DNA of 64,000 nt from Patescibacteria group bacterium (GTDB lineage Bacteria; Patescibacteriota; Microgenomatia; UBA12405). Below, piece by piece: positions 1,337 to 58,125 of this stretch. The DNA lies in NCBI GenBank assembly GCA_018902845.1, contig JAHIPV010000020.1, forward strand, positions 10,810-74,809, given 5' to 3'. The position numbers and the translations under genes were made by a program. The stretch's first letter is position 1. Every line of letters starts with the position of its first letter. Below the pieces are notes generated by a model that was given only the letters and a program-made list of their open reading frames with translations, was not told where the DNA came from and searched no databases.

Positions 1337-2711
1337 TGTAAAATTTTAAAATTTTGTAATAGATTCCTATCATAATCCAAAAAAGATAAGCGGTTTTGGA
1401 GGCTTCAAAAACATCAATAAAAATAGCGTTGGCCAAAGTGGTCAAAAGACAGGCTAAAAATATGTAAATAAGATAATTTTGGTTTTTCTTTAGAGAGTGA
1501 ATGAAGAACCAAAAGAGAATGATAAAGAATGACAAAAAACCAAAAATACCCGATTCGCCCAGGAGTCTTAGATAATCATTGTCGGTGGCCAGTGTGATTG
1601 AACCGAGGCCGGTGCCAAGTAATGGGTTTTTGTAAAAAGCATTAAGGGCGCGGGGCCACTCAACGTTAAATCTGATTTCTCCGGAGCGGGAGACTCCGGC
1701 ATCAATATCAACTTCCGGATATTCTGGTGGTGTTGGATGTCTAAAAATTGTGGGAATGGGGGTGGTTTTTGACTTTGGTGTTGGGATTGGGGAAATTTTG
1801 AGTTTTAGTGTTGGTTGTGGTGACGGGGATGGAAGGATTACCGTTACTGTTGGCTTTGGCTTGAGTGTTTGAATAGTGGCAACAAGGCGGTCATTTAGTT
1901 GGTCGGATTTAAATAAATTTAAAATAACCAAAAGAGAAACAGGAATAATCCAGATCTTTTTTTTGATAAACAGAAGCATAAATATAGCTCCTCCCCAAAA
2001 AGCAAAAATTGAAATGCGGGAGACGGTAAAAACAAGCAATTGAAATAAAATTAACCAGATTATTAGAATTGGGATTTTTAATAAGCTTTTTTTTGATTTG
2101 AGAGTTATTCCAAGGATTAAAACAAGAATCACACTAAGAAAGGCGGCTAAATCGTAGTGGCCGGCAAAAGCAGCACTGATTCTTGACCACTTGGTTAAAT
2201 TTAAGATATAGCCTTTGGAAAATTCCTCATTCATGGTTGAAATGATGGGCCAGTTGAAATATTTTTGGCCATAACCATAAAGAGCCACAAATATGGAAGC
2301 TATTATCAAGAAAAAGAAGGGATATTTCAGATCTTTTTTAGACTGAACAGCGTCTATGGCTACAAAAGCAACAAGCATATATTCGATACGGCGAAGAAAG
2401 TGAAGAATCAGCAAATTAACAGGAGTGGTTTTTAGAATTAATATGGCATGAAGAGTAGAAAGAAAAATACCAGCAAAGTAAATTAAAAATAGTTTAAAAA
2501 GTGGGTTTTTAAAAACGGGTAATCTTTTTTTAATTTGTAAGATTGCCCAGATTAGTATAGAAACAGAGATAATAATGTCGTCGAGGCGAATGGCAACATA
2601 TGTATTTTTGACTGTAGATAGTGGAAATTTAGGATAAAGAGGGATAAAGAGGATAAGGATGGCTAAGACTGGCCTTAAGATATTGAACTTTTTTGTTATA
2701 TTTTTGAACAT
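1233..2711 (-). CDS. Polytopic membrane protein with internal Pro/Thr-rich linker, possible O-antigen ligase/polymerase-like (Wzy_C-like)
   Basis: 492 aa with many predicted TM helices and a PT-rich spacer (PKPTVTVILPSPSPQPTLKLKISPIPTPKSKTTPIP). Its C-terminal tail is encoded by a family-B repeat. Confidence 0.45.
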   Translation of the reverse strand: MFKNITKKFNILRPVLAILILFIPLYPKFPLSTVKNTYVAIRLDDIIISVSILIWAILQIKKRLPVFKNPLFKLFLIYFAGIFLSTLHAILILKTTPVNLLILHFLRRIEYMLVAFVAIDAVQSKKDLKYPFFFLIIASIFVALYGYGQKYFNWPIISTMNEEFSKGYILNLTKWSRISAAFAGHYDLAAFLSVILVLILGITLKSKKSLLKIPILIIWLILFQLLVFTVSRISIFAFWGGAIFMLLFIKKKIWIIPVSLLVILNLFKSDQLNDRLVATIQTLKPKPTVTVILPSPSPQPTLKLKISPIPTPKSKTTPIPTIFRHPTPPEYPEVDIDAGVSRSGEIRFNVEWPRALNAFYKNPLLGTGLGSITLATDNDYLRLLGESGIFGFLSFFIILFWFFIHSLKKNQNYLIYIFLACLLTTLANAIFIDVFEASKTAYLFWIMIGIYYKILKFYSRHPDHPQGEKNLGTKCRIINANARSFTHVQDDE

Positions 2712-16633: not shown

Positions 16634-16825
16634 ATGGTTGATTTAAAAAGTGGGTTTTATAAAACTTTTGCCAATTTACCATTGGGAGTAAGAGATGGGA
16701 TAGTATTGGTAATAGACGGTCAGCCGACAACTTGGAATGTGATCAAATTGGAGGTTGATACAGACAGTAAAACATCAAAGAAGGCCTTAAAATTGTTAGA
16801 TGAGTTGAGATTAATTAAGAAATAG
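16634..16825 (+). CDS. Small hypothetical protein
   Basis: 63-aa ORF immediately upstream of the octamer array. Weak support. Confidence 0.3.
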   Translation: MVDLKSGFYKTFANLPLGVRDGIVLVIDGQPTTWNVIKLEVDTDSKTSKKALKLLDELRLIKK

Positions 16826-16940
16826 ATAATTAGACAACTAGACAACTAGATAACTAGATAACTAGATAACTAGATAACTAGATAACCGGATAACCGGATA
16901 ACCGGATAACCGGACAACTAGATAACCGGATAACCGGATA
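16823..16940. repeat. Periodic 8-bp tandem array, about 14 units (AACTAGAT / AACCGGAT / GACAACTA)
   Basis: Sequence reads AGATAATTAGACAACTAGACAACTAGATAACTAGATAACTAGATAACTAGATAACCGGATAACCGGATAACCGGATAACCGGACAACTAGATAACCGGATAACCGGATAA. The same octamer family occurs at 47113, 47763, 49489 and 58071. Confidence 0.8.
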
Positions 16941-44457: not shown

Positions 44458-45678
44458 TTATATGTGAATGGTTTGTAATAATTTATTTTTAAATATGTCA
44501 AAGTTGTATTTTTCAAGTAGGTTGTTTTGTATGTTAATTATTGACCGGATTCGGTCTGGTTTATTGATTAAATCTTTGAGTATTTTATTTATATCTTCAA
44601 TATTATCATACGTATATATGTTATTATTTTGGGTAATTTGGGAAAAGGCGCTGTTTCGATTAATAATTAAGGGAATGCCGTGGTAAATTGCCTCAAAATT
44701 GACTATACCCAAGCTTTCTTCAATTGAAGGGTTAATAAATATGTCAATTTTTTCGAATTTTCTTTGTTTTTCTGATTTTTTAAAATTATAGTTTATTTTA
44801 ACTATATTTTGTTTAATATATTTTTTAAATTCTTTTTCTATTAAGCTAGAGGAGTTTGTTTTGGCACCGGAAAAGTAAAGAGTTAATTTGTAATTTTGTT
44901 TTTGCCAATATAGTAGGTATTTATCTAAATAGTTTTTAAAGATAATCAGATTTTTTCTAAGGGTGATTTGTCCGATAAAACCGATATTTATTTGTTTGTT
45001 GTGAATCCTTTTTAATTTTTTAGAGATAATTTTGTTAAGGTTTGTTTGTTGTTTTTTTATTTGCTTGATGGTGTATGGGCAAAAAGTGGTTTGGATAAGT
45101 TTTGATTTATTAATTTTGTAGTTTTTGATAAGTTGTAATTTTTCCATGGGAGAGAGGTAAAGAATTTTGTGGGAATAATTAAGAGATTTTTGAAAAAAAG
45201 GACAATTGTTGTAGTAATTAACATTATGGTAAGCAGGAATTAGGATTAGTTTTTGGTTGAATTTCTTGGCAAAAATATAGCTGTCATAAAACATTTTAGT
45301 TGGCATGCCTGTACCGATAATAATATTTGAGTTTTTGATTATATTTATAATTTTGGGAGTATATTCTAAAATTGGGCCGAAATAAAAAGGAGAAAAGAAG
45401 CCAACTTTGAGTATAATTTTATTTAGAAATTTATTGGCTATTCGTTGCCAGAAGAAATTTAACTTTAGTCTGTGGATGTTGTTTTTTTTATCTGTTTTAT
45501 TGTTTGGTAAAAAGTCTTTGAAGGTTTTATAGCTATCCAGAGTTGATCCTTTGCCTGTAATAATATGGACAGTATATTTTTCATCTAAAATTTTTTTAGT
45601 TTCTTCTATTAAATATTCGAGACCGCCTTTGGCTGGTGGAAAGCAATGAACAAAAATACAAATACTTTTATTTTTCAT
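44458..45678 (-). CDS. Glycosyltransferase family 4
   Basis: INPSIEESLGIVNFEAIYHGIPLIINRN. Confidence 0.75.
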   Translation of the reverse strand: MKNKSICIFVHCFPPAKGGLEYLIEETKKILDEKYTVHIITGKGSTLDSYKTFKDFLPNNKTDKKNNIHRLKLNFFWQRIANKFLNKIILKVGFFSPFYFGPILEYTPKIINIIKNSNIIIGTGMPTKMFYDSYIFAKKFNQKLILIPAYHNVNYYNNCPFFQKSLNYSHKILYLSPMEKLQLIKNYKINKSKLIQTTFCPYTIKQIKKQQTNLNKIISKKLKRIHNKQINIGFIGQITLRKNLIIFKNYLDKYLLYWQKQNYKLTLYFSGAKTNSSSLIEKEFKKYIKQNIVKINYNFKKSEKQRKFEKIDIFINPSIEESLGIVNFEAIYHGIPLIINRNSAFSQITQNNNIYTYDNIEDINKILKDLINKPDRIRSIINIQNNLLEKYNFDIFKNKLLQTIHI

Positions 45679-46405
45679 TAGTATATTTTTTTATAATGGT
45701 TTCTGGGTTACCGTGGGAAATTAGTTTGGATTTGTCTAGATAAATTGCTTTGGTGCAGAAGGATTGGATTGATTCCATGGAGTGGGAAACATAAATAATA
45801 GTGATGCCGGATTTTTTGAATTGTTCCATTTTGGCGAAGCATTTGGCTTGAAAAGCAGTATCGCCTACTGCTAGGATTTCATCAATTAATAGTATTTGGG
45901 GGTTTACGTGAATGGCTACTGAGAAAGCCAGGCGCATGTACATGCCGGAGGAATAGTGTTTGATGGGTTGGTTTATAAATTGGTGAAGTTCGGAAAAGTT
46001 TAAAATATCTTGGTAATAATTATCGATTTGTTTTTTGGAGAGGCCTAAAATAGAGCCGTTTAGGTATATGTTTTCTTTGCCGGTCAGTTCGGGATGAAAA
46101 CCGGCGCCGAGTTCGATTAAGGGTGAGACTTTACCGTTTACAATAACTTTGCCTTTGGTAGGTGACATGACGCCGGCTATGAGTTTTAAAATAGTTGATT
46201 TGCCGGCTCCGTTGGGGCCGATGATTCCCAGAGTCTCTCCTTTATTGACTGAAAAGGAGATGTTTTTTAGAGCGGTGAAATTTTGTTTAGTTTTTTGACG
46301 GCCAAAGAGAGCCGGGAGGAATTCTTTGAAGGTTTTTTGGGAGTATAAAGAGAATTCTTTAGTGACATTGGTGAATTTGATGATGGGGTGGTTGTTTTTT
46401 GACAT
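45668..46405 (-). CDS. ABC transporter ATP-binding protein for polysaccharide or teichoic-acid export (Wzt/TagH/KpsT-like, no C-terminal carbohydrate-binding domain)
   Basis: Walker A GIIGPNGAGKST, ABC signature YSSGMYMRLAF and Walker B ILLIDE. Confidence 0.85.
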   Translation of the reverse strand: MSKNNHPIIKFTNVTKEFSLYSQKTFKEFLPALFGRQKTKQNFTALKNISFSVNKGETLGIIGPNGAGKSTILKLIAGVMSPTKGKVIVNGKVSPLIELGAGFHPELTGKENIYLNGSILGLSKKQIDNYYQDILNFSELHQFINQPIKHYSSGMYMRLAFSVAIHVNPQILLIDEILAVGDTAFQAKCFAKMEQFKKSGITIIYVSHSMESIQSFCTKAIYLDKSKLISHGNPETIIKKYTNEK

Positions 46406-46517
46406 GATTTTGTTGATTTTTGGTACTTATTTAATTTTACTTTAACTTGACAATCACTTTGTATAAATGTAAACTATTGTTAATCATCAGGGAGAATACG
46501 ACCCTTAGACTACGTGT

Positions 46518-47102
46518 CTATGAGTGACGCCTCCCGATTTTTTTTGGCCTAATTTTAGGGCTTTCTAAATATTCTAATTTTTCTTTCTCTCGGTATAAAA
46601 AGAGTTTGTACAGTTGGAGATTCTTTAATAAGCTTGATTCGGAGTGTTTATTGGGAATAATAATTTTTAATAATTTTTTGTTTTTTATTAAATATTGGTG
46701 TAAGCAGAAAAAGTCTCCGTCTCCTGAAACAATGACGGCCTTTTGGTAATTTTTAAATTCAATGGCGGCAGAATGCAAAACTAGTTCGGCATCAACATTT
46801 CCCTTTGGTTTGTTGTGATTGTCTTTGACTGTGGGTTTAAATACTAGTTGATAACCAAATGAGCACAGACTTTTATAAAGACCTTCATATTGTTTCAGAT
46901 ATCCGATAAACAAAAAGGCCTTAGTAACTCTAAATTTGTCTGAGAGAAATCGATGAAATTTTTTAAAATCTAGTTTCCAGCCTTTGTAAATTAACTGTCT
47001 GTTTCTATAGATATTTTTAGAAGTACCTAGATTTAGGTTTTGGCTGTCAATGAAAGCATAGATTGGCTTATTTTTTATTTTTTGGATTATTTTTTTAGAC
47101 AT
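46518..47102 (-). CDS. NYN-domain (LabA-like, PIN-related) protein
   Basis: PIYAFIDSQNLNL ... KGNVDAELVLH ... AVIVSGDGDFFCL. Confidence 0.7.
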   Translation of the reverse strand: MSKKIIQKIKNKPIYAFIDSQNLNLGTSKNIYRNRQLIYKGWKLDFKKFHRFLSDKFRVTKAFLFIGYLKQYEGLYKSLCSFGYQLVFKPTVKDNHNKPKGNVDAELVLHSAAIEFKNYQKAVIVSGDGDFFCLHQYLIKNKKLLKIIIPNKHSESSLLKNLQLYKLFLYREKEKLEYLESPKIRPKKIGRRHS

Positions 47103-47112
47103 ACGGGTGTTA

Positions 47113-47143
47113 TAGCTGGATTACTGGATAACCGGATGATGGG
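47113..47143. repeat. Octamer-family array (CTGGATTACTGGATAACCGGATGA)
   Basis: Same 8-bp periodicity and units as 16823-16940. It lies upstream of NYN gene 1. Confidence 0.6.
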
Positions 47144-47211
47144 GTTGTTTTTTTAATTGACATGGAGTTGTTGATTTAGTATAATTTGATTATCACGATG
47201 AGAGGGTACGC

Positions 47212-47751
47212 CTAAGGTCTTGTCCGAAGGTTGCTCCCTCTTTTTTTTGTTGATAATTTCTTTTTTAGGTCGTTTATATAAACGAAGTATTTTCTAAATT
47301 TTCTTAATAAGGCCGAGTATTTTTTTGGATTTGGAATGATAATGTGGGAGAGTTTGTTTTTCTTTTTGAGATATTCTATTAAGCAGTGAAAGTCTCCGTC
47401 GCCTGAAACAATGATTGCTTTGTTGTAATTGGGATATTGGATCATGGTGTGTAAAACCAGATCAGCGTCTACGTTGCCCTTGGTGTATCTTTTATCGTCT
47501 TTTTTGTATTCCAGTGTTGGTTTAAAAACAACTATATAGTCGGATTCTTGCAGATATGTGTAAAGTATTTGGTTTCCGGGAATGTAACCAATGAATAAAA
47601 AGGCTTTTTCAACTTTGTATTTATCTTTGAGGTAAATACGGAATCTTTTGAAATCTAGTTTCCAGCCTTGAGATCTGATGGAGAGGTTTAGGTTTTGGCT
47701 GTCAATGAAAGCGTAAATGGGCTTGGTTATTTTTTTATTTTTTTTAGACAT
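47212..47751 (-). CDS. NYN-domain (LabA-like) protein, tandem paralogue
   Basis: PIYAFIDSQNLNL ... KGNVDADLVLH ... AIIVSGDGDFHCL. Confidence 0.7.
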   Translation of the reverse strand: MSKKNKKITKPIYAFIDSQNLNLSIRSQGWKLDFKRFRIYLKDKYKVEKAFLFIGYIPGNQILYTYLQESDYIVVFKPTLEYKKDDKRYTKGNVDADLVLHTMIQYPNYNKAIIVSGDGDFHCLIEYLKKKNKLSHIIIPNPKKYSALLRKFRKYFVYINDLKKKLSTKKRGSNLRTRP

Positions 47752-47762
47752 ATGGGTATTAT

Positions 47763-47796
47763 AGCTGGATTACTAGATTACTGGACAACTAGACTG
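47763..47796. repeat. Octamer-family array (GCTGGATTACTAGATTACTGGACAACTAGAC)
   Basis: It lies upstream of NYN gene 2. The flanking sequence CATATGGGTATTATAGCTGGATTACT is duplicated at 47101-47125. Confidence 0.6.
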
Positions 47797-47806
47797 TTTG
47801 GGCATT

Positions 47807-48604
47807 TTAGATGTTGTCGGCGAAGGTTTTTTCTTGAGTTTTGAAATATTTAAGACCGATTAAAAGAGTAAGAATAGAAACTAAAAGGGCGATGAACAGA
47901 CTGGTAATGTTTGGCATTCCCCTGCCTAGAATTGATTGGCGGTAAGCGTTGGTAAGAACGCTTAAGGGATTGAGCTGGAATATGAAGCGAAGATGGGCCG
48001 GAACTATGTCTATCGGGTAAATAATGGGAGTTAGGTACATCCAGAGCATAAGAATAAGACCAAGCATGTATTGGACATCACGATAAATTAGATTGGCGGC
48101 AGAGAAAAAAAGAGAAACACCCAGAGTGAAAATTTGTTGAATCAGAAATATGGGTATGAACCACAAGACATTTAGATTGATTGGGATTTTGTAGATAAAG
48201 AAAAAAGCGATTAAGATGGTAGAAGCGAAAAAGAAATCAATGATTTTGGCAATGATGGTAGCTAGGGGTAAAATAGTTCTGGGAAAATATATTTTTGTGA
48301 TTAAGTTAGAACTGTTGACAAGTGAATTGGTGGCCGAAGAAAGAGAATTTGAAAAAAGAGTCCATGGCAAGAGAGCGGTGTAAAGGAAAATTGAATATGG
48401 GATTTTGGAATTGGCGTGAGTGGGAATACGCATGATGACAGAAAAGGCGAAGCTCATAACCAGCATTTGTAAGAAAGGGTTTAAGATTACCCAGAAGTAG
48501 CCTAGAATTGATTGTTTGTAACGGGCTTTGATTTCGCGACCGACCATTTGAAAAAGCAGTTCTTTGCGAGCTAGGATGGCTTTGGTTTCGGTGATGAGGA
48601 GCAT
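47807..48604 (-). CDS. ABC-2-type polysaccharide export permease (Wzm/TagG/KpsM-like)
   Basis: 265 aa with 6 TM helices, typical ABC-2 topology. It is the partner of the ATPase at 45668..46405. Confidence 0.75.
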   Translation of the reverse strand: MLLITETKAILARKELLFQMVGREIKARYKQSILGYFWVILNPFLQMLVMSFAFSVIMRIPTHANSKIPYSIFLYTALLPWTLFSNSLSSATNSLVNSSNLITKIYFPRTILPLATIIAKIIDFFFASTILIAFFFIYKIPINLNVLWFIPIFLIQQIFTLGVSLFFSAANLIYRDVQYMLGLILMLWMYLTPIIYPIDIVPAHLRFIFQLNPLSVLTNAYRQSILGRGMPNITSLFIALLVSILTLLIGLKYFKTQEKTFADNI

Positions 48605-48626
48605 GAAGGTAGTATAAAGGAATAAA

Positions 48627-48685
48627 TCCTAAATTCTAATATCTAAATTCTAAACAATATTTAAATTCAAATGTTCAAAACTTAA
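48627..48685. repeat. Family-C AT-rich module, second copy
   Basis: CCTAAATTCTAATATCTAAATTCTAAACAATATTTAAATTCAAATGTTCAAAAC. Confidence 0.5.
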
Positions 48686-48727
48686 AATAAATTTAATGTT
48701 GTTATTGGGAGGAATGAAGTGATGCGT

Positions 48728-48757
48728 CTGCGGGCGACCGCAAGGGTCGCCCCTACG
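48728..48757. repeat. Family-A hairpin copy, intergenic
   Basis: CTGCGGGCGACCGCAAGGGTCGCCCCTACG. Confidence 0.7.
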
Positions 48758-48785
48758 AAGGGTGTGATGATGGGTGTTTTTCTGG

Positions 48786-48822
48786 GGGGATTCTTCGTGG
48801 AAACCTCAGAATGACGGTGGGA
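48786..48822. repeat. Family-B fragment, followed by palindrome E at 48843-48875 (TTAGACAGGTTAGAAACCTGTCTCTA)
   Basis: GGATTCTTCGTGGAAACCTCAGAATGACGGTGGGA. The palindrome-E arms AGACAGGTT/AACCTGTCT are perfect. Confidence 0.5.
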
Positions 48823-48952
48823 TGGGGTTGGGAGGAAGAGTTTTAGACAGGTTAGAAACCTGTCTCTACACGGAGGCTGGTGGATTAAAAAGAAAAAGCA
48901 ACTGTTGCAAATTTTGCAACAGTTTAAATAGTTGGGTTTGGTAGAATGAGGA

Positions 48953-49492
48953 ATGGATGAAGAGAGTAAAAAAGAATTAGCTGTAATAATTTCTGACTAT
49001 ATTGAGTCGTTGTCTTTGTTGAAGCAGTATGATGATAGGAAAATAAGGGTTTCTGGTTTGTCTGAGAAAGTAAAGTATGTTTTGGAATATAAAAAAGTGG
49101 TTGGTCTGGTGATGGAGCTGAGACAAGACTTGATTAAAAAGAATTTGGCTACAGAATTATTTGGAGTTGAAAATAGTAAAAAACTGGATGGGTTGATTGG
49201 GGCTATTAATCAAACTTTTGATGGAAAAAATTTGTATTCAAGTATTGAAGAAAAAGCGGCTAATTTGTTGTATATGGTTATTAAAGATCATCCTTTTGTC
49301 GATGGAAATAAAAGGACGGCGGCGACTTTGTTTGTATATTTTTTGAATAGAAATGGATATTTGTTTAAGAAGAATGGCGAAAGAAAGATTGATGATAGGG
49401 CTTTGGTGGCTTTGACTTTGTTGATTGCGGTCAGTGATCCAAGGGAGAAGGAAATGATGGTTAAGTTGACGATGAGTTTGATAAAGAATTAG
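48953..49492 (+). CDS. Doc-type Fic-fold protein (death-on-curing toxin family)
   Basis: DHPFVDGNKRTAATLF matches the Doc motif H-x-F-x-D-G-N-K-R. Confidence 0.65.
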   Translation: MDEESKKELAVIISDYIESLSLLKQYDDRKIRVSGLSEKVKYVLEYKKVVGLVMELRQDLIKKNLATELFGVENSKKLDGLIGAINQTFDGKNLYSSIEEKAANLLYMVIKDHPFVDGNKRTAATLFVYFLNRNGYLFKKNGERKIDDRALVALTLLIAVSDPREKEMMVKLTMSLIKN

Positions 49493-49545
49493 ACAATTAG
49501 ATAACTAGACAACTAGATTACTGGATTACTGGATGACTGGATAAA
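49489..49545. repeat. Octamer-family array (AGACAATTAGATAACTAGACAACTAGATTACTGGATTACTGGATGACTGGATAA)
   Basis: 8-bp periodic units. Confidence 0.7.
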
Positions 49546-49547
49546 AT

Positions 49548-49704
49548 GTTGTCATTGCGAGGAGTCCAACGACGTGGCAATCCCGCAGGAAGAGTAAAAA
49601 GGTGTTGATTAAAATCCCGACGGGATCCTCCAGAGGCGGACACGTTGCCATGTTGTCACGTAATAAATTAAGAAATTTAAACGTGATTTCCTCGCAATGA
49701 CAGG
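49548..49704. mobile_element. MITE-like element, ~157 bp, with 14-bp terminal inverted repeats TGTCATTGCGAGGA / TCCTCGCAATGACA
   Basis: The perfect termini are related to the family-B termini (GTCATTCYGAG). There is no coding capacity. Confidence 0.5.
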
Positions 49705-49706
49705 TT

Positions 49707-51539
49707 TTGGAGTTTGGTAGAATTGGAGATATGGGACAGAGGAAGATAAAAGCAGAAAGACGAAAAAAGAAAAACAAGGAGATCCTTCGCTACACTCAGG
49801 ATGACGGTGGGAGGCAGAATGACGGTGGGAGGATTCAGAACGACGGTGGGAGGCAGAATGACGGGGGGAGGGATTCGGGACGGGCTCGGTTTTGGTTTGG
49901 CAAGGTTGGAATAAGGGGAATATTGAGGGAGAATTGGAAGTTTTTGGTGATATTAACGATGGGGATTGTTTTGCTTTATTTGAATGCAATGAGAGGAGAT
50001 TTTGTGTCTGATGATTATGCCACTATTCCAAACAATCCTTTAATCAAGGATATGTCAGCCGGTTTTAAGGGTTTGAACGTTGTTTATATAAGCAATGTGA
50101 TTATCGCCAGACTTTTTGGAGTTACTCCCCTCCCTTTTCATTTGTATAGCCTCTTTTTGTTTATTTTGACTTGTGTGGTGGCTTTTCTTTTTTTGCGAGT
50201 TTTGTTTGGTGAAAAAGTAGCCAAATTAACGACAATTATTTTTGCCGTTCATCCGATTCATGTTGAGGCGGTTTCTTGGATTTCGGGAAAACCCTATACT
50301 TTGGCTTCTATGTTTATGTTGGCGGCTTTGCTGGTTGGAGTGTTTTTGGTGGAGACAAGGAAAAGAAAATATTTGATTTGGATGATAATTTTTGCTCTTT
50401 TGGCTTATCAGTCCGATGCGGCTAGGTCTTTATCTTTTATATTTTTGTTTTTGCTGTATTTGTGGTTTAGAGGTGGACTTGGAGGGATGAAAAAGCAGTT
50501 TTATAGATATTTGCCTTTTGTATTGGTTGTTATAACAACGGGAATTGTAATTTTGTGGCCTGGTATTAAGACAAGAATTGAGTCTGTTAATTCGGGATAT
50601 AATCGAGTTGGAAGTATTTTTTATAATCCGTTTTTTCAATATCCGACTTCGGTAACAAAGTATTTACAATTAATGCTGATTCCGGCTGATTTGACACTTT
50701 ATCACACTATGTATACTGTTCCGGTTTGGCTGAATTGGTTGGTTTTGGTGACATTTTTGTCTTTGTTGATATATTCTTTTTTTAGAGATAGAAAGATTTT
50801 TTTTGGATTGAGTTTTATGTTTTTGGCTTCGGTGGCTTCAATGGCGCCGGTTAAGGTTGGCTGGCTGGTGGCAGAAAGGTATATGTTTTTGGGGAGTTTG
50901 GGATTTTGCCTGGTACTGGTTTTGTTTTGGGACAGGATTCCTAAAAAACTGAAATTAGTAAAATTGACAGTTTTTGTATGTTTAATTATTGGTTTTACGG
51001 TTAGAACTTTTGTGAGAAATATTGATTGGCAAACTAATCATAAACTTTGGGTAAATACTGTTCAGACATCTCCAAACAGCCATAATGCTTGGAATAATAT
51101 TGGAGATGATTACGATAAATTAAAAGACTATGAAAACGCCATAAAGGGATTTACTCAATCAACTGTGATGAAGGCCAATTATGCCGATGCCTATCATAAC
51201 AGGGCCAATATTTATTTGAAAACCGGACGTTTGGATTTGGCCAGAGACAGTTATTTGACTGCTTTAAAATATTCCCCCGGTTTGTTTCAGACTTATGTGA
51301 GCTTGACTCAGGTTGAATTGATGCAGAAAAAACCTGAAAAGGCAATGGAATATGCCAAAAAAACGGTTGAGATGCAACCAAACAATTTTCAAGCCCATTA
51401 TGTTTTGGGGGTAGTTTTGGCTCAGTCGGGAAATAGAGAGGAGGCTTTAAAAGAGATAAAGATTTCTTTACAACTGAACCCTAATTTTGGGCCGGCTAAA
51501 GATGCGTTGGTTAAACTAAATTCAGATGAATCAAAATAA
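49707..51539 (+). CDS. Transmembrane + C-terminal TPR-repeat protein (TMTC/GT-C-like architecture)
   Basis: About 9 TM helices followed by 4-5 TPR units (NAWNNIGDDYDKLKDYENAIKGF ... AYHNRANIYLKTGRLDLARDSY ...). The first ~60 codons are repeat-derived, so the true start may be internal, for example near 49951. Confidence 0.55.
   Translation: MEFGRIGDMGQRKIKAERRKKKNKEILRYTQDDGGRQNDGGRIQNDGGRQNDGGRDSGRARFWFGKVGIRGILRENWKFLVILTMGIVLLYLNAMRGDFVSDDYATIPNNPLIKDMSAGFKGLNVVYISNVIIARLFGVTPLPFHLYSLFLFILTCVVAFLFLRVLFGEKVAKLTTIIFAVHPIHVEAVSWISGKPYTLASMFMLAALLVGVFLVETRKRKYLIWMIIFALLAYQSDAARSLSFIFLFLLYLWFRGGLGGMKKQFYRYLPFVLVVITTGIVILWPGIKTRIESVNSGYNRVGSIFYNPFFQYPTSVTKYLQLMLIPADLTLYHTMYTVPVWLNWLVLVTFLSLLIYSFFRDRKIFFGLSFMFLASVASMAPVKVGWLVAERYMFLGSLGFCLVLVLFWDRIPKKLKLVKLTVFVCLIIGFTVRTFVRNIDWQTNHKLWVNTVQTSPNSHNAWNNIGDDYDKLKDYENAIKGFTQSTVMKANYADAYHNRANIYLKTGRLDLARDSYLTALKYSPGLFQTYVSLTQVELMQKKPEKAMEYAKKTVEMQPNNFQAHYVLGVVLAQSGNREEALKEIKISLQLNPNFGPAKDALVKLNSDESK
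49797..49872. repeat. Tandem 21-bp repeat x3.5 (GGGAGGCAGAATGACGGTGGG-type), derived from a family-B terminus
   Basis: It would encode DDGGRQNDGGRIQNDGGRQNDGGR in frame. Confidence 0.7.
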
Positions 51540-58070: not shown

Positions 58071-58125
58071 GGTTACTGGACAATTAGATAACTGGATTAC
58101 TAGATTACTGGATAACTAGATAAAG
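58071..58125. repeat. Octamer-family array in a divergent promoter region
   Basis: GGTTACTGGACAATTAGATAACTGGATTACTAGATTACTGGATAACTAGATAAAG. Confidence 0.7.

Follow-up and report, generated by a model that had tools for sequence, protein, structure and literature searches.

Type III toxin–antitoxin (TA) systems (ToxIN, CptIN, and TenpIN) consist of an endoribonuclease and a structured RNA that neutralizes it; they play a role in abortive infection, and phage-borne mimics of the antitoxin are known. Nuclease-type toxins are also under the control of a small RNA in SymE/SymR and RalR/RalA. Here, we describe two units of ~650 bp, each consisting of a LabA-type NYN nuclease gene and a convergent small RNA (sRNA) gene, in a 64,000-nt stretch of a low-GC Patescibacteria-type genome (the whole stretch analyzed is referred to as the window, and coordinates refer to it). 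The two units fill the 1.4 kb gap between the wzm and wzt genes of an ATP-binding cassette (ABC) exporter, and the same NYN–sRNA unit recurs across many phyla, especially in the Candidate Phyla Radiation (CPR). In the type I systems bsrG/SR4 and txpA/RatA of B. subtilis and par Fst/RNA II of E. faecalis, the toxin gene and its antisense RNA are likewise convergent and overlap at their 3' ends, the sRNA is expressed from its own strong promoter, and the units are compact and spread horizontally (PMC3834814, PMC6562991). In bsrG/SR4, the sRNA drives decay of the mRNA and blocks its translation (PMC3834814; reviewed in PMC6562991).

As in the type I systems, an antisense RNA gene with its own promoter and terminator overlaps a protein gene at the present locus. 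The known type I toxins are membrane peptides of <60 aa, whereas the proteins here are soluble NYN enzymes of 170–195 aa rather than small hydrophobic peptides. In addition, the overlap covers only 31–37 nt of the open reading frame (ORF), the NYN gene is usually without its own promoter, and the sRNA is conserved across phyla. With type III, the locus shares an endoribonuclease-type protein and a structured RNA that would neutralize the protein. However, in type III the antitoxin consists of tandem repeats that precede the toxin gene on the same strand, are separated from it by a terminator, and are processed by the toxin, while the RNA gene here is single-copy, convergent, downstream, and separately promoted; the type III nuclease fold also differs from NYN. 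The RNAs of SymE/SymR and RalR/RalA target the 5' region or act in trans with Hfq, and their protein families are unrelated to NYN. By analogy, the NYN–sRNA pair would most resemble a hybrid of types I and III that lacks defining features of both classical classes (no peptide toxin and no same-strand repeat-array antitoxin).

Several other elements share single features with the locus. VapBC, a type II TA system with a PIN-domain toxin, is also a two-gene mobile module with an RNase toxin of the PIN-like superfamily, but its antitoxin VapB is a protein encoded upstream, and there is no antitoxin protein gene beside NYN. RNA-OUT of IS10 is similarly an antisense hairpin RNA that is small, stable, and expressed from a strong promoter at the margin of a mobile unit, and integron cassettes are similarly promoterless ORFs with a structured 3' element and co-directional insertion. 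Unlike these two, the present locus has no transposase, integrase, or attC consensus, and the overlap of its RNA with the gene is at the 3' rather than the 5' end. The NYN–sRNA cassette is widespread and apparently undescribed: a full-text search of the accessible literature, which is not exhaustive, found no description of NYN paired with an sRNA, an antitoxin, or defence. A 2017 survey of the PIN superfamily gave the function of the LabA/COG1432 group as unknown and did not mention an RNA partner, although NYN proteins in general are tied to RNA processing (PMC5499597).

NYN genes and their small RNA genes

The features of the locus are as follows. Loci from other genomes and contigs are designated by L numbers.

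45668–46405, minus strand: wzt-type ABC exporter ATPase, the downstream host gene (Pfam ABC_tran, E 1e-23; orthologue of wzt in L024, L163, and L007)
46380–46420: direct-repeat copy B, the genuine wzt 5' end, about −14 to +29 from the ATG (repeat families D5 and D6; three-way alignment with L024)
46447–46475, plus strand: sRNA-1 promoter, TTGACA-17-TAAACT (10/12 sigma-70 consensus)
46483–46548, plus strand: sRNA-1, "W1 type", ~64 nt (folding, homologues, and covariation)
46518–47102, minus strand: NYN-1, LabA-type NYN nuclease gene, 194 aa (Pfam PF01936)
47090–47136: NYN-1 start and 5' flank with octamer units (repeat family D4; 89% identical to the NYN-2 flank)
47133–47177: direct-repeat copy A, a duplicated pseudo-5'-end of wzt (alignment with L024)
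47157–47185, plus strand: sRNA-2 promoter, TTGACA-17-TATAAT (12/12 sigma-70 consensus)
47192–47248, plus strand: sRNA-2, "main type", ~56 nt (covariance model R1 and covariation)
47212–47751, minus strand: NYN-2, LabA-type NYN nuclease gene, 179 aa (Pfam PF01936)
47752–47806: NYN-2 5' flank with an octamer array (47768–47793), between the wzm stop and the NYN-2 start
47807–48604, minus strand: wzm-type ABC-2 permease, the upstream host gene (Pfam ABC2_membrane, E 6e-16)

The gene order on the minus strand is wzm, NYN-2, NYN-1, wzt, a GT4 glycosyltransferase, a methyltransferase, and more glycosyltransferases. The permease, the ATPase, and the glycosyltransferases thus lie in one operon, as in Wzm/Wzt ABC-2 polysaccharide exporters. 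An earlier note on this DNA had placed two paralogous LabA/NYN genes between wzt and wzm, and this was borne out: the matches to PF01936 (NYN-1, E 4e-11 and 44 bits; NYN-2, E 1e-14 and 55.6 bits) are above the cut-off of 24.2 bits, and the two proteins are 51% identical. The conserved 3' elements that it had described (GGGAG...CTCCC followed by T8) are also present at 46483–46548 and 47192–47248, but they turned out to be RNA genes of their own on the opposite strand, not part of the NYN transcript.

Both proteins are bona fide LabA/COG1432 NYN members. NYN-2 matches the LabA-like structure 2qip (VPA0982) by sequence, and its AlphaFold2 model (pLDDT 86) has a PIN-like alpha/beta fold with 2qip (TM 0.65–0.71) and the MARF1 NYN domain (5yaa) as the best Foldseek matches. 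The acidic residues of metal-binding type (Asp17, Asp95, Asp118, and Asp120, plus Asp33) are invariant across 29 NYN sequences and also occur in divergent and UGA-recoded members. The proteins therefore share the domain, the fold, and the acidic active-site residues with LabA-like proteins, and from the predicted fold and these residues they look nuclease-competent. The LabA-like proteins have no RNA partner on record, whereas the subfamily here is tied to an sRNA gene. This subfamily is tight, short, and single-domain (269 clusters at 50% identity, E ≤ 1e-30), with identities of 70–80% across phyla. NYN-1 belongs to a second large subfamily, and an identical protein is on record. PADLOC gave generic matches for NYN-2 (PDLC01154, "LabA-like protein, NYN family nuclease", and HEC-09) and none for NYN-1. 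In the Gracilibacteria-type loci L014, L017, and L018, in-frame UGA codons occupy conserved Gly or Trp positions of NYN (e.g. GD*DF for GDGDF), which indicates that the cassette is translated with an alternative genetic code there and that some cassettes are long-term residents.

The NYN genes usually have no recognizable promoter and start a few nucleotides from the stop codon of the upstream host gene. A TATAAT sequence lies 6 nt before the NYN-2 ATG, but there is no acceptable −35 box and the promoter scan did not list the site. The two top sigma-70-type promoter matches within 45500–49800, those of sRNA-1 and sRNA-2, both lie on the plus strand. The exact sequence TTGACA-N16-18-TATAAT occurs once in the window, at the sRNA-2 promoter, against 0.07 expected occurrences. 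Each promoter ends 6–7 nt ahead of a conserved AUCA(C/U) motif, which is followed by an interrupted hairpin and a U8 run; the ends of sRNA-1 were inferred from its promoter and U-run. sRNA-1 folds into a 5' AUCAUCA tail, a GGGAG/CUCCC outer helix, an inner hairpin (UAGAC-UACGU-GUCUA), and a U8 tail. sRNA-2 folds into a 5' AUCACGAU tail, a GAGAGGG/CCCUCUU helix, inner CCU/AGG and GG/CC helices, a UCUUGU loop, and a U8 tail. Both predicted RNAs are convergent with the NYN genes: sRNA-1 overlaps the last 31 nt of the NYN-1 ORF and sRNA-2 the last 37 nt of the NYN-2 ORF, and by this geometry the sequence of each is antisense to the final ~10 codons and to the 3' end of the NYN mRNA. Read in the minus-strand direction, the hairpin comes after an A-run and has no U-run behind it, so that it is a terminator only for the plus-strand transcript.

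Covariance model R1, built from main-type sRNAs, scores sRNA-2 at 80.6 bits (E 1e-20). It did not detect sRNA-1, which was validated separately through NYN-1 homologues; its promoter-plus-RNA layout recurs in L161, L163, and L165. A promoter with at least 9/12 agreement to the sigma-70 consensus was found at the right distance in 56 of 66 distinct upstream regions, compared with 2% at random positions, and the spacers are not conserved. In a model-based alignment of 92 distinct main-type sequences, 97.8% of the cells are paired and 8 of the 13 pairs show double changes; none of 500 shuffles reached the observed values, and slid controls were 47–77% paired. For the W1 type (six sequences), 6 of 13 pairs show double changes, again unmatched by any of 500 shuffles. 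Seventeen divergent members have one shape with differing outer helices (GAGAGGG, AGAGGC, GGGAG, AAGAAG, CGAGU, GGGC, and others). Both elements are conserved RNA families with compensatory base changes, not chance hairpins. The excess of G-U cells (44) over A-C cells (7) identifies the transcribed strand. At the C-terminal tail of NYN, the same nucleotides are read in two frames (...KKRGSNLRTKP or ...KKERE), indicating that the conservation there is at the RNA level and not at the protein level. The single-stranded 5' AUCAY(G/C)A tail is invariant, and the apical U...GU loop and the internal loops are conserved across phyla to a degree that far exceeds the demands of antisense pairing.

No Rfam 15 family reached its gathering score across the whole window, and the only match at E ≤ 10 in 46380–47320 was a spurious snoRNA. 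No tRNA or tmRNA genes were found. Resemblances noted by eye (a hammerhead core, helix 8 of the signal recognition particle RNA, and the 3' end of 16S rRNA) were dropped for lack of model support.

Linkage, insertion, and spread of the cassette

The linkage between NYN and the sRNA was examined from both sides. A protein-side scan with one genome per species gave 19 loci, 17 of them not cut by a contig end, in Peribacteria, Shapirobacteria, Kuenenbacteria, Saccharibacteria, Gracilibacteria, Omnitrophota, Anaerolineales, Delta- and Gammaproteobacteria, and others. At 16 of the 17, a promoter, an AUCAC tail, a hairpin, and a U-run are present on the opposite strand after the NYN stop codon. The same layout was seen in all further protein-derived contexts (L020, L024, L026–34, L153, L155, L156, L159, L161, L163, and L165). 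NYN without the sRNA was thus found at one of the 17 protein-side loci and in none of 10 further contexts. An RNA-side scan of metagenome contigs with a degenerate pattern of the intact main-type sRNA gave at least 118 loci, of which 107 among the matches listed are non-duplicate. These comprise 62 with a full NYN gene, always convergent, 12 with an NYN fragment, 18 orphan sRNAs with room for a gene, and 15 cut by a contig end. The NYN gene is therefore lost or decayed beside the sRNA at 30 of the 92 assessable loci among these matches, and many of the orphan sRNAs retain a good promoter and a U-run. An sRNA that survives without NYN, together with an NYN gene that is almost never without the sRNA, is the pattern predicted for a toxin/antitoxin pair. 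The sRNA type also follows the NYN subfamily, the W1 type being found with NYN-1-like proteins (L098, L100, L161, L163, and L165).

Some loci depart from the simple pairing. In L098 (2350–2520) and L100 (150–340), given in sRNA-oriented coordinates that equal the stored locus coordinates, separately promoted sRNA genes of the main and the W1 type lie in tandem beside a single NYN-1-type gene; in L100, an apparent 3' half of a main-type RNA follows the W1-type RNA. L008 has a second sRNA match (2236–2293, minus strand; 31.6 bits) ~730 bp beyond its NYN gene, which has a shorter sRNA-like element of its own, and this second match may represent a further orphan or an additional cassette. A main-type sRNA without an NYN gene is present on two IMG/VR viral contigs. 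The copy in L021 (4995–5052, minus strand) is intergenic, just after a terminator, and keeps its U-run, while that in L023 (1404–1461, plus strand) looks decayed and lacks both a clear promoter and a U-run. A role of the viral orphans as antitoxin mimics is possible. The sRNA was absent from the cultured phage and plasmid collections. L057, L075, and L020 have NYN proteins 28%, 30%, and 78% identical to NYN-2 and share the main-type sRNA; all three lie at the 3' end of homologous pilin genes with ...ILRIPGFG-like C-termini, and the direct repeats flanking the L057 and L020 cassettes are 45 and 39 bp.

The cassette contexts include type I restriction–modification (R-M) genes in the order hsdM, NYN, and hsdS, a MmeI-type/PLD-helicase system, type IV secretion/pilin clusters, and ABC operons; R-M or Fic/RhuM genes are frequent among them. 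In 12 distinct contexts, the downstream neighbour was co-directional in all 12 and the upstream neighbour in 11. The NYN start is usually −17 to +7 nt from the upstream stop codon, with ATGA overlaps in L024, L044, and L163. Because the only terminator is on the antisense strand, only insertions co-directional with the operon would be tolerated. Annotation is affected as well: operons such as wzm/wzt and hsdM/hsdS are interrupted by these cassettes, whose strong convergent promoters land on host start codons.

Imperfect direct repeats of 17–67 bp flank about 10 of the 58 distinct cassettes, as compared with at most 8–13 matching bases in shuffles. By these repeats, the cassette begins at the ATG of NYN on the left and finishes just beyond the −35 box on the right. 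A fixed-length target-site duplication of transposase type was considered and rejected on account of the variable repeat length; nor does the unit have the features of a transposon or insertion sequence, as no terminal inverted repeats were seen. The variable repeats fit integration or excision by recombination at short homologous segments. Judging from these comparisons, the cassette is mobile.

The window itself gives an example of insertion. Its DNA matches L024 (gene order wzm, RhuM-Fic, NYN, sRNA, wzt) over wzm, the NYN-2 cassette, and wzt, and it has an extra 763 bp (46412–47174) corresponding to the NYN-1 cassette. This insert lies between two imperfect direct copies (A and B) of ~43 bp from the wzt 5' end. 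In L024 and L163, the wzt start ATGTCAA reads TTGACAT on the other strand and is itself the −35 box for the sRNA; for sRNA-2 of the window, this part is taken by the pseudo-start ATGTCAA of copy A. Window positions 46433–47080 are 85% identical over 648 bp to L161, a cassette between hsdM and hsdS of a type I R-M system in another organism, and the bounds of this match define the mobile unit as the NYN ORF, the sRNA, and its promoter.

The NYN-1 and NYN-2 units are best read as two independently acquired cassettes, one of each type; they did not arise by recent tandem duplication. With the L024 protein, NYN-2 shares 83% identity (80% for the cassette DNA), and with the L161 protein, NYN-1 shares 90% (85% for the DNA). 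Of the "duplicated, self-contained cassette" proposed in the earlier note, the self-contained unit therefore stands, with the RNA as its central part, but with 51% protein identity, closer relatives elsewhere, and different sRNA types the two units are not duplicates. Nothing links the cassette functionally to the exporter operon in which the note had seen a possible regulatory or RNA-processing function embedded; the same cassette occurs in R-M, pilin/secretion, and other ABC operons. The comparison of wzm/wzt synteny for which it had called showed that L024, L163, and L007 also carry an NYN cassette directly upstream of wzt. In these three loci, every orthologous wzm/wzt pair is split by inserted accessory genes. 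L163 is syntenic with the window (radical-SAM gene, TPR gene, wzm, Avd-like gene, NYN-1-type cassette, and wzt) but only 72% identical. The other genes in the gap are an Avd/23S-rRNA-IVP-like four-helix protein in L163 (2654–3004), an acetyltransferase and an unknown protein in L007 (2661–3861), and RhuM-Fic in L024 (814–1770). This variety marks the gap as an insertion hot spot that has been used repeatedly in this lineage. We are highly confident of the cassette anatomy as described here.

Candidate functions of the NYN–sRNA pair

In the favoured reading, to which we give as much credence as doubt, the NYN gene and the sRNA would together form a TA or addiction-type module, a mobile cassette that serves addiction or defence and has an RNA as its antitoxin. 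The NYN gene would probably be expressed by read-through of the host operon, since it usually lacks a recognizable promoter and starts near the upstream stop codon. The protein would be a growth-inhibiting RNase that is harmful when unchecked, and the sRNA, abundant and probably short-lived, would be its antitoxin. The sRNA might act on the NYN mRNA by pairing at its 3' end, as in the type I system bsrG/SR4, or by binding the nuclease directly, as in the type III systems. Direct binding would explain why the sRNA tail, the internal loops, and the apical loop are conserved beyond the needs of pairing, and by analogy the conserved tail, internal loops, and U...GU loop suggest such recognition by the NYN protein. 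A cassette of this kind would be hard to lose and may fire when transcription collapses, e.g. upon phage infection. NYN-1/sRNA-1 and NYN-2/sRNA-2 would be two diverged and probably non-cross-reacting pairs. The viral orphan sRNAs and the tandem sRNAs of L098 and L100 fit an antitoxin or anti-addiction logic.

Several points weigh against this reading. No complementarity was seen between the 5' region of the sRNA and the site of translation initiation of NYN (mean z = 0.1, 59 cassettes), which limits any antisense action to the 3' overlap. The main-type sRNA of L057 accompanies an NYN protein only 28% identical to NYN-2, a pairing that weakens a model of strict protein–RNA specificity. The RNA-side census needed an intact main-type sRNA and covers the matches listed out of at least 118 loci, so that its orphan fraction is biased. 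There were no close NYN homologues in the viral contigs, cultured phages, or plasmids, and in PADLOC neither NYN protein matches a known RNA-antitoxin system. The hosts of the cassette are all uncultured, and the LabA-type NYN proteins are without demonstrated toxin activity (PMC5499597).

A more far-reaching version can be offered only tentatively. The cassette would represent a new class of RNA-antitoxin addiction or abortive-infection cassettes, common in CPR bacteria and crossing phyla, in which a structured sRNA of ~56 nt base-pairs with the NYN mRNA at its 3' end and also neutralizes the RNase directly. It would be a promoterless, translationally coupled "operon parasite" that inserts beside gene ends through recombination at short duplicated target segments, and phages may carry the sRNA alone as a counter-defence.

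Among the alternatives, NYN could be a regulated accessory RNase, useful in RNA processing or defence, with the sRNA as a mere cis-antisense brake and no addiction. Plain antisense control would agree with the overlap of the convergent 3' ends and with the strength of the sRNA promoter, RNA processing is the general association of NYN proteins, and the cassette has persisted in Gracilibacteria long enough for UGA to appear at conserved Gly positions. However, this would leave unexplained the conservation of the sRNA loops and 5' tail across phyla, the promoter-intact orphan sRNAs and the sRNAs beside decayed NYN genes, the intact-looking orphan on viral contig L021, and the patchy, horizontally transferred spread in unrelated operons. 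We consider it a rather unlikely explanation.

Somewhat less probable in our judgement is a ribonucleoprotein effector, in which the sRNA is not an inhibitor but a cofactor, scaffold, or substrate mimic needed by NYN (e.g. in a phage-sensing or RNA-targeting complex). The extreme conservation of sRNA structure and sequence, with its invariant 5' tail and apical U...GU loop, fits such a complex, as do the correspondence between sRNA type and NYN subfamily and the presence of defence islands among the contexts. A tail that is short and invariant cannot be a programmable guide, however; the 18 promoter-intact orphans and the 12 sRNAs beside NYN fragments among the matches listed are hard to explain if the RNA has no use without the protein, and L057 retains the same RNA with a very different NYN protein.

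We regard it as improbable that the cassette is a nuclease-driven mobile element, in which NYN makes a DNA break that spreads the cassette in a homing-like manner while the sRNA restrains it, as RNA-OUT does the IS10 transposase. The unit is indeed discrete and ends sharply, at the ATG of NYN on one side and at the −35 box of the sRNA on the other; flanking direct repeats exist, and differing cassette types have arrived repeatedly just upstream of wzt. Yet the repeats are imperfect and, at 17–67 bp, unlike a fixed enzymatic duplication, so that short-homology recombination fits better, and about 48 of the 58 cassettes have no repeat. The closest folds are RNA-acting NYN domains, and we know of no NYN-fold transposase or homing enzyme. 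Finally, a tandemly duplicated NYN gene whose 3' hairpins are untranslated-region or terminator elements regulating the exporter operon is very improbable, despite the adjacent units in the same orientation with their 89%-identical 47-nt upstream flank, because the proteins are each much closer to cassettes in other genomes than to each other (51% identity), the hairpins have their own opposite-strand promoters with a U-run on that strand only, and the same unit occurs in non-exporter operons.

If the TA or defence module holds, RNA-antitoxin systems would extend to a new nuclease fold, and the cassette would provide a handle on conflict systems in uncultured bacteria with reduced genomes. Bacterial LabA-type NYN proteins are abundant and none has a defined function, and a dedicated RNA partner offers a concrete, testable hypothesis for this subfamily. 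The sRNA family, which is absent from Rfam, is among the most sequence-conserved small RNAs common to CPR bacteria and distant phyla.

Octamer arrays and other features of the window

The octamer array and duplicated flank that had been assigned to each NYN gene are present, the flanks 47090–47136 and 47739–47785 being 89% identical over 47 nt including the octamer units, but the octamers are not specific to the cassette. Arrays of the 8-nt unit (TAGATAAC / CGGATAAC / TGGATTAC; up to 14 copies) lie in intergenic regions at 16823–16934, 47112–47137, 47768–47793, 49490–49542, and 58075–58123, all five in the same plus-strand orientation regardless of the direction of the neighbouring genes. The three sites away from the NYN genes (16823–16934, 49490–49542, and 58075–58123) identify the octamers as a genome-wide intergenic repeat. 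As they are also absent from the cassettes in other genomes, the arrays were rejected as a part of the cassette.

Upstream of wzm lies a Fic/DOC ORF (48953–49492, plus strand, within 48884–49492) whose match to PDC-S23, a candidate-defence family in PADLOC, is confined to the C-terminal half of that family. Its homologue in L024 is the full RhuM-Fic gene placed between wzm and NYN. The copy in the window is truncated at the 5' end, inverted, and located across wzm from that position, and it looks like a rearranged remnant. A perfect palindrome with an 11-bp stem (AACTGTTGCAAAATTTGCAACAGTT) at 48900–48924, scored as a minus-strand terminator, is 100% conserved in L024 (996–1020), where it lies inside the RhuM-Fic coding region. 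GC-rich repeat-like islands flank the Fic remnant on either side (48700–48880 and 49545–49700). At 49797–49876, four copies of an 18-nt tandem repeat (CAGAATGACGGTGGGAGG) encode a QNDGGR repeat at the N-terminus of a 610-aa TPR membrane protein.

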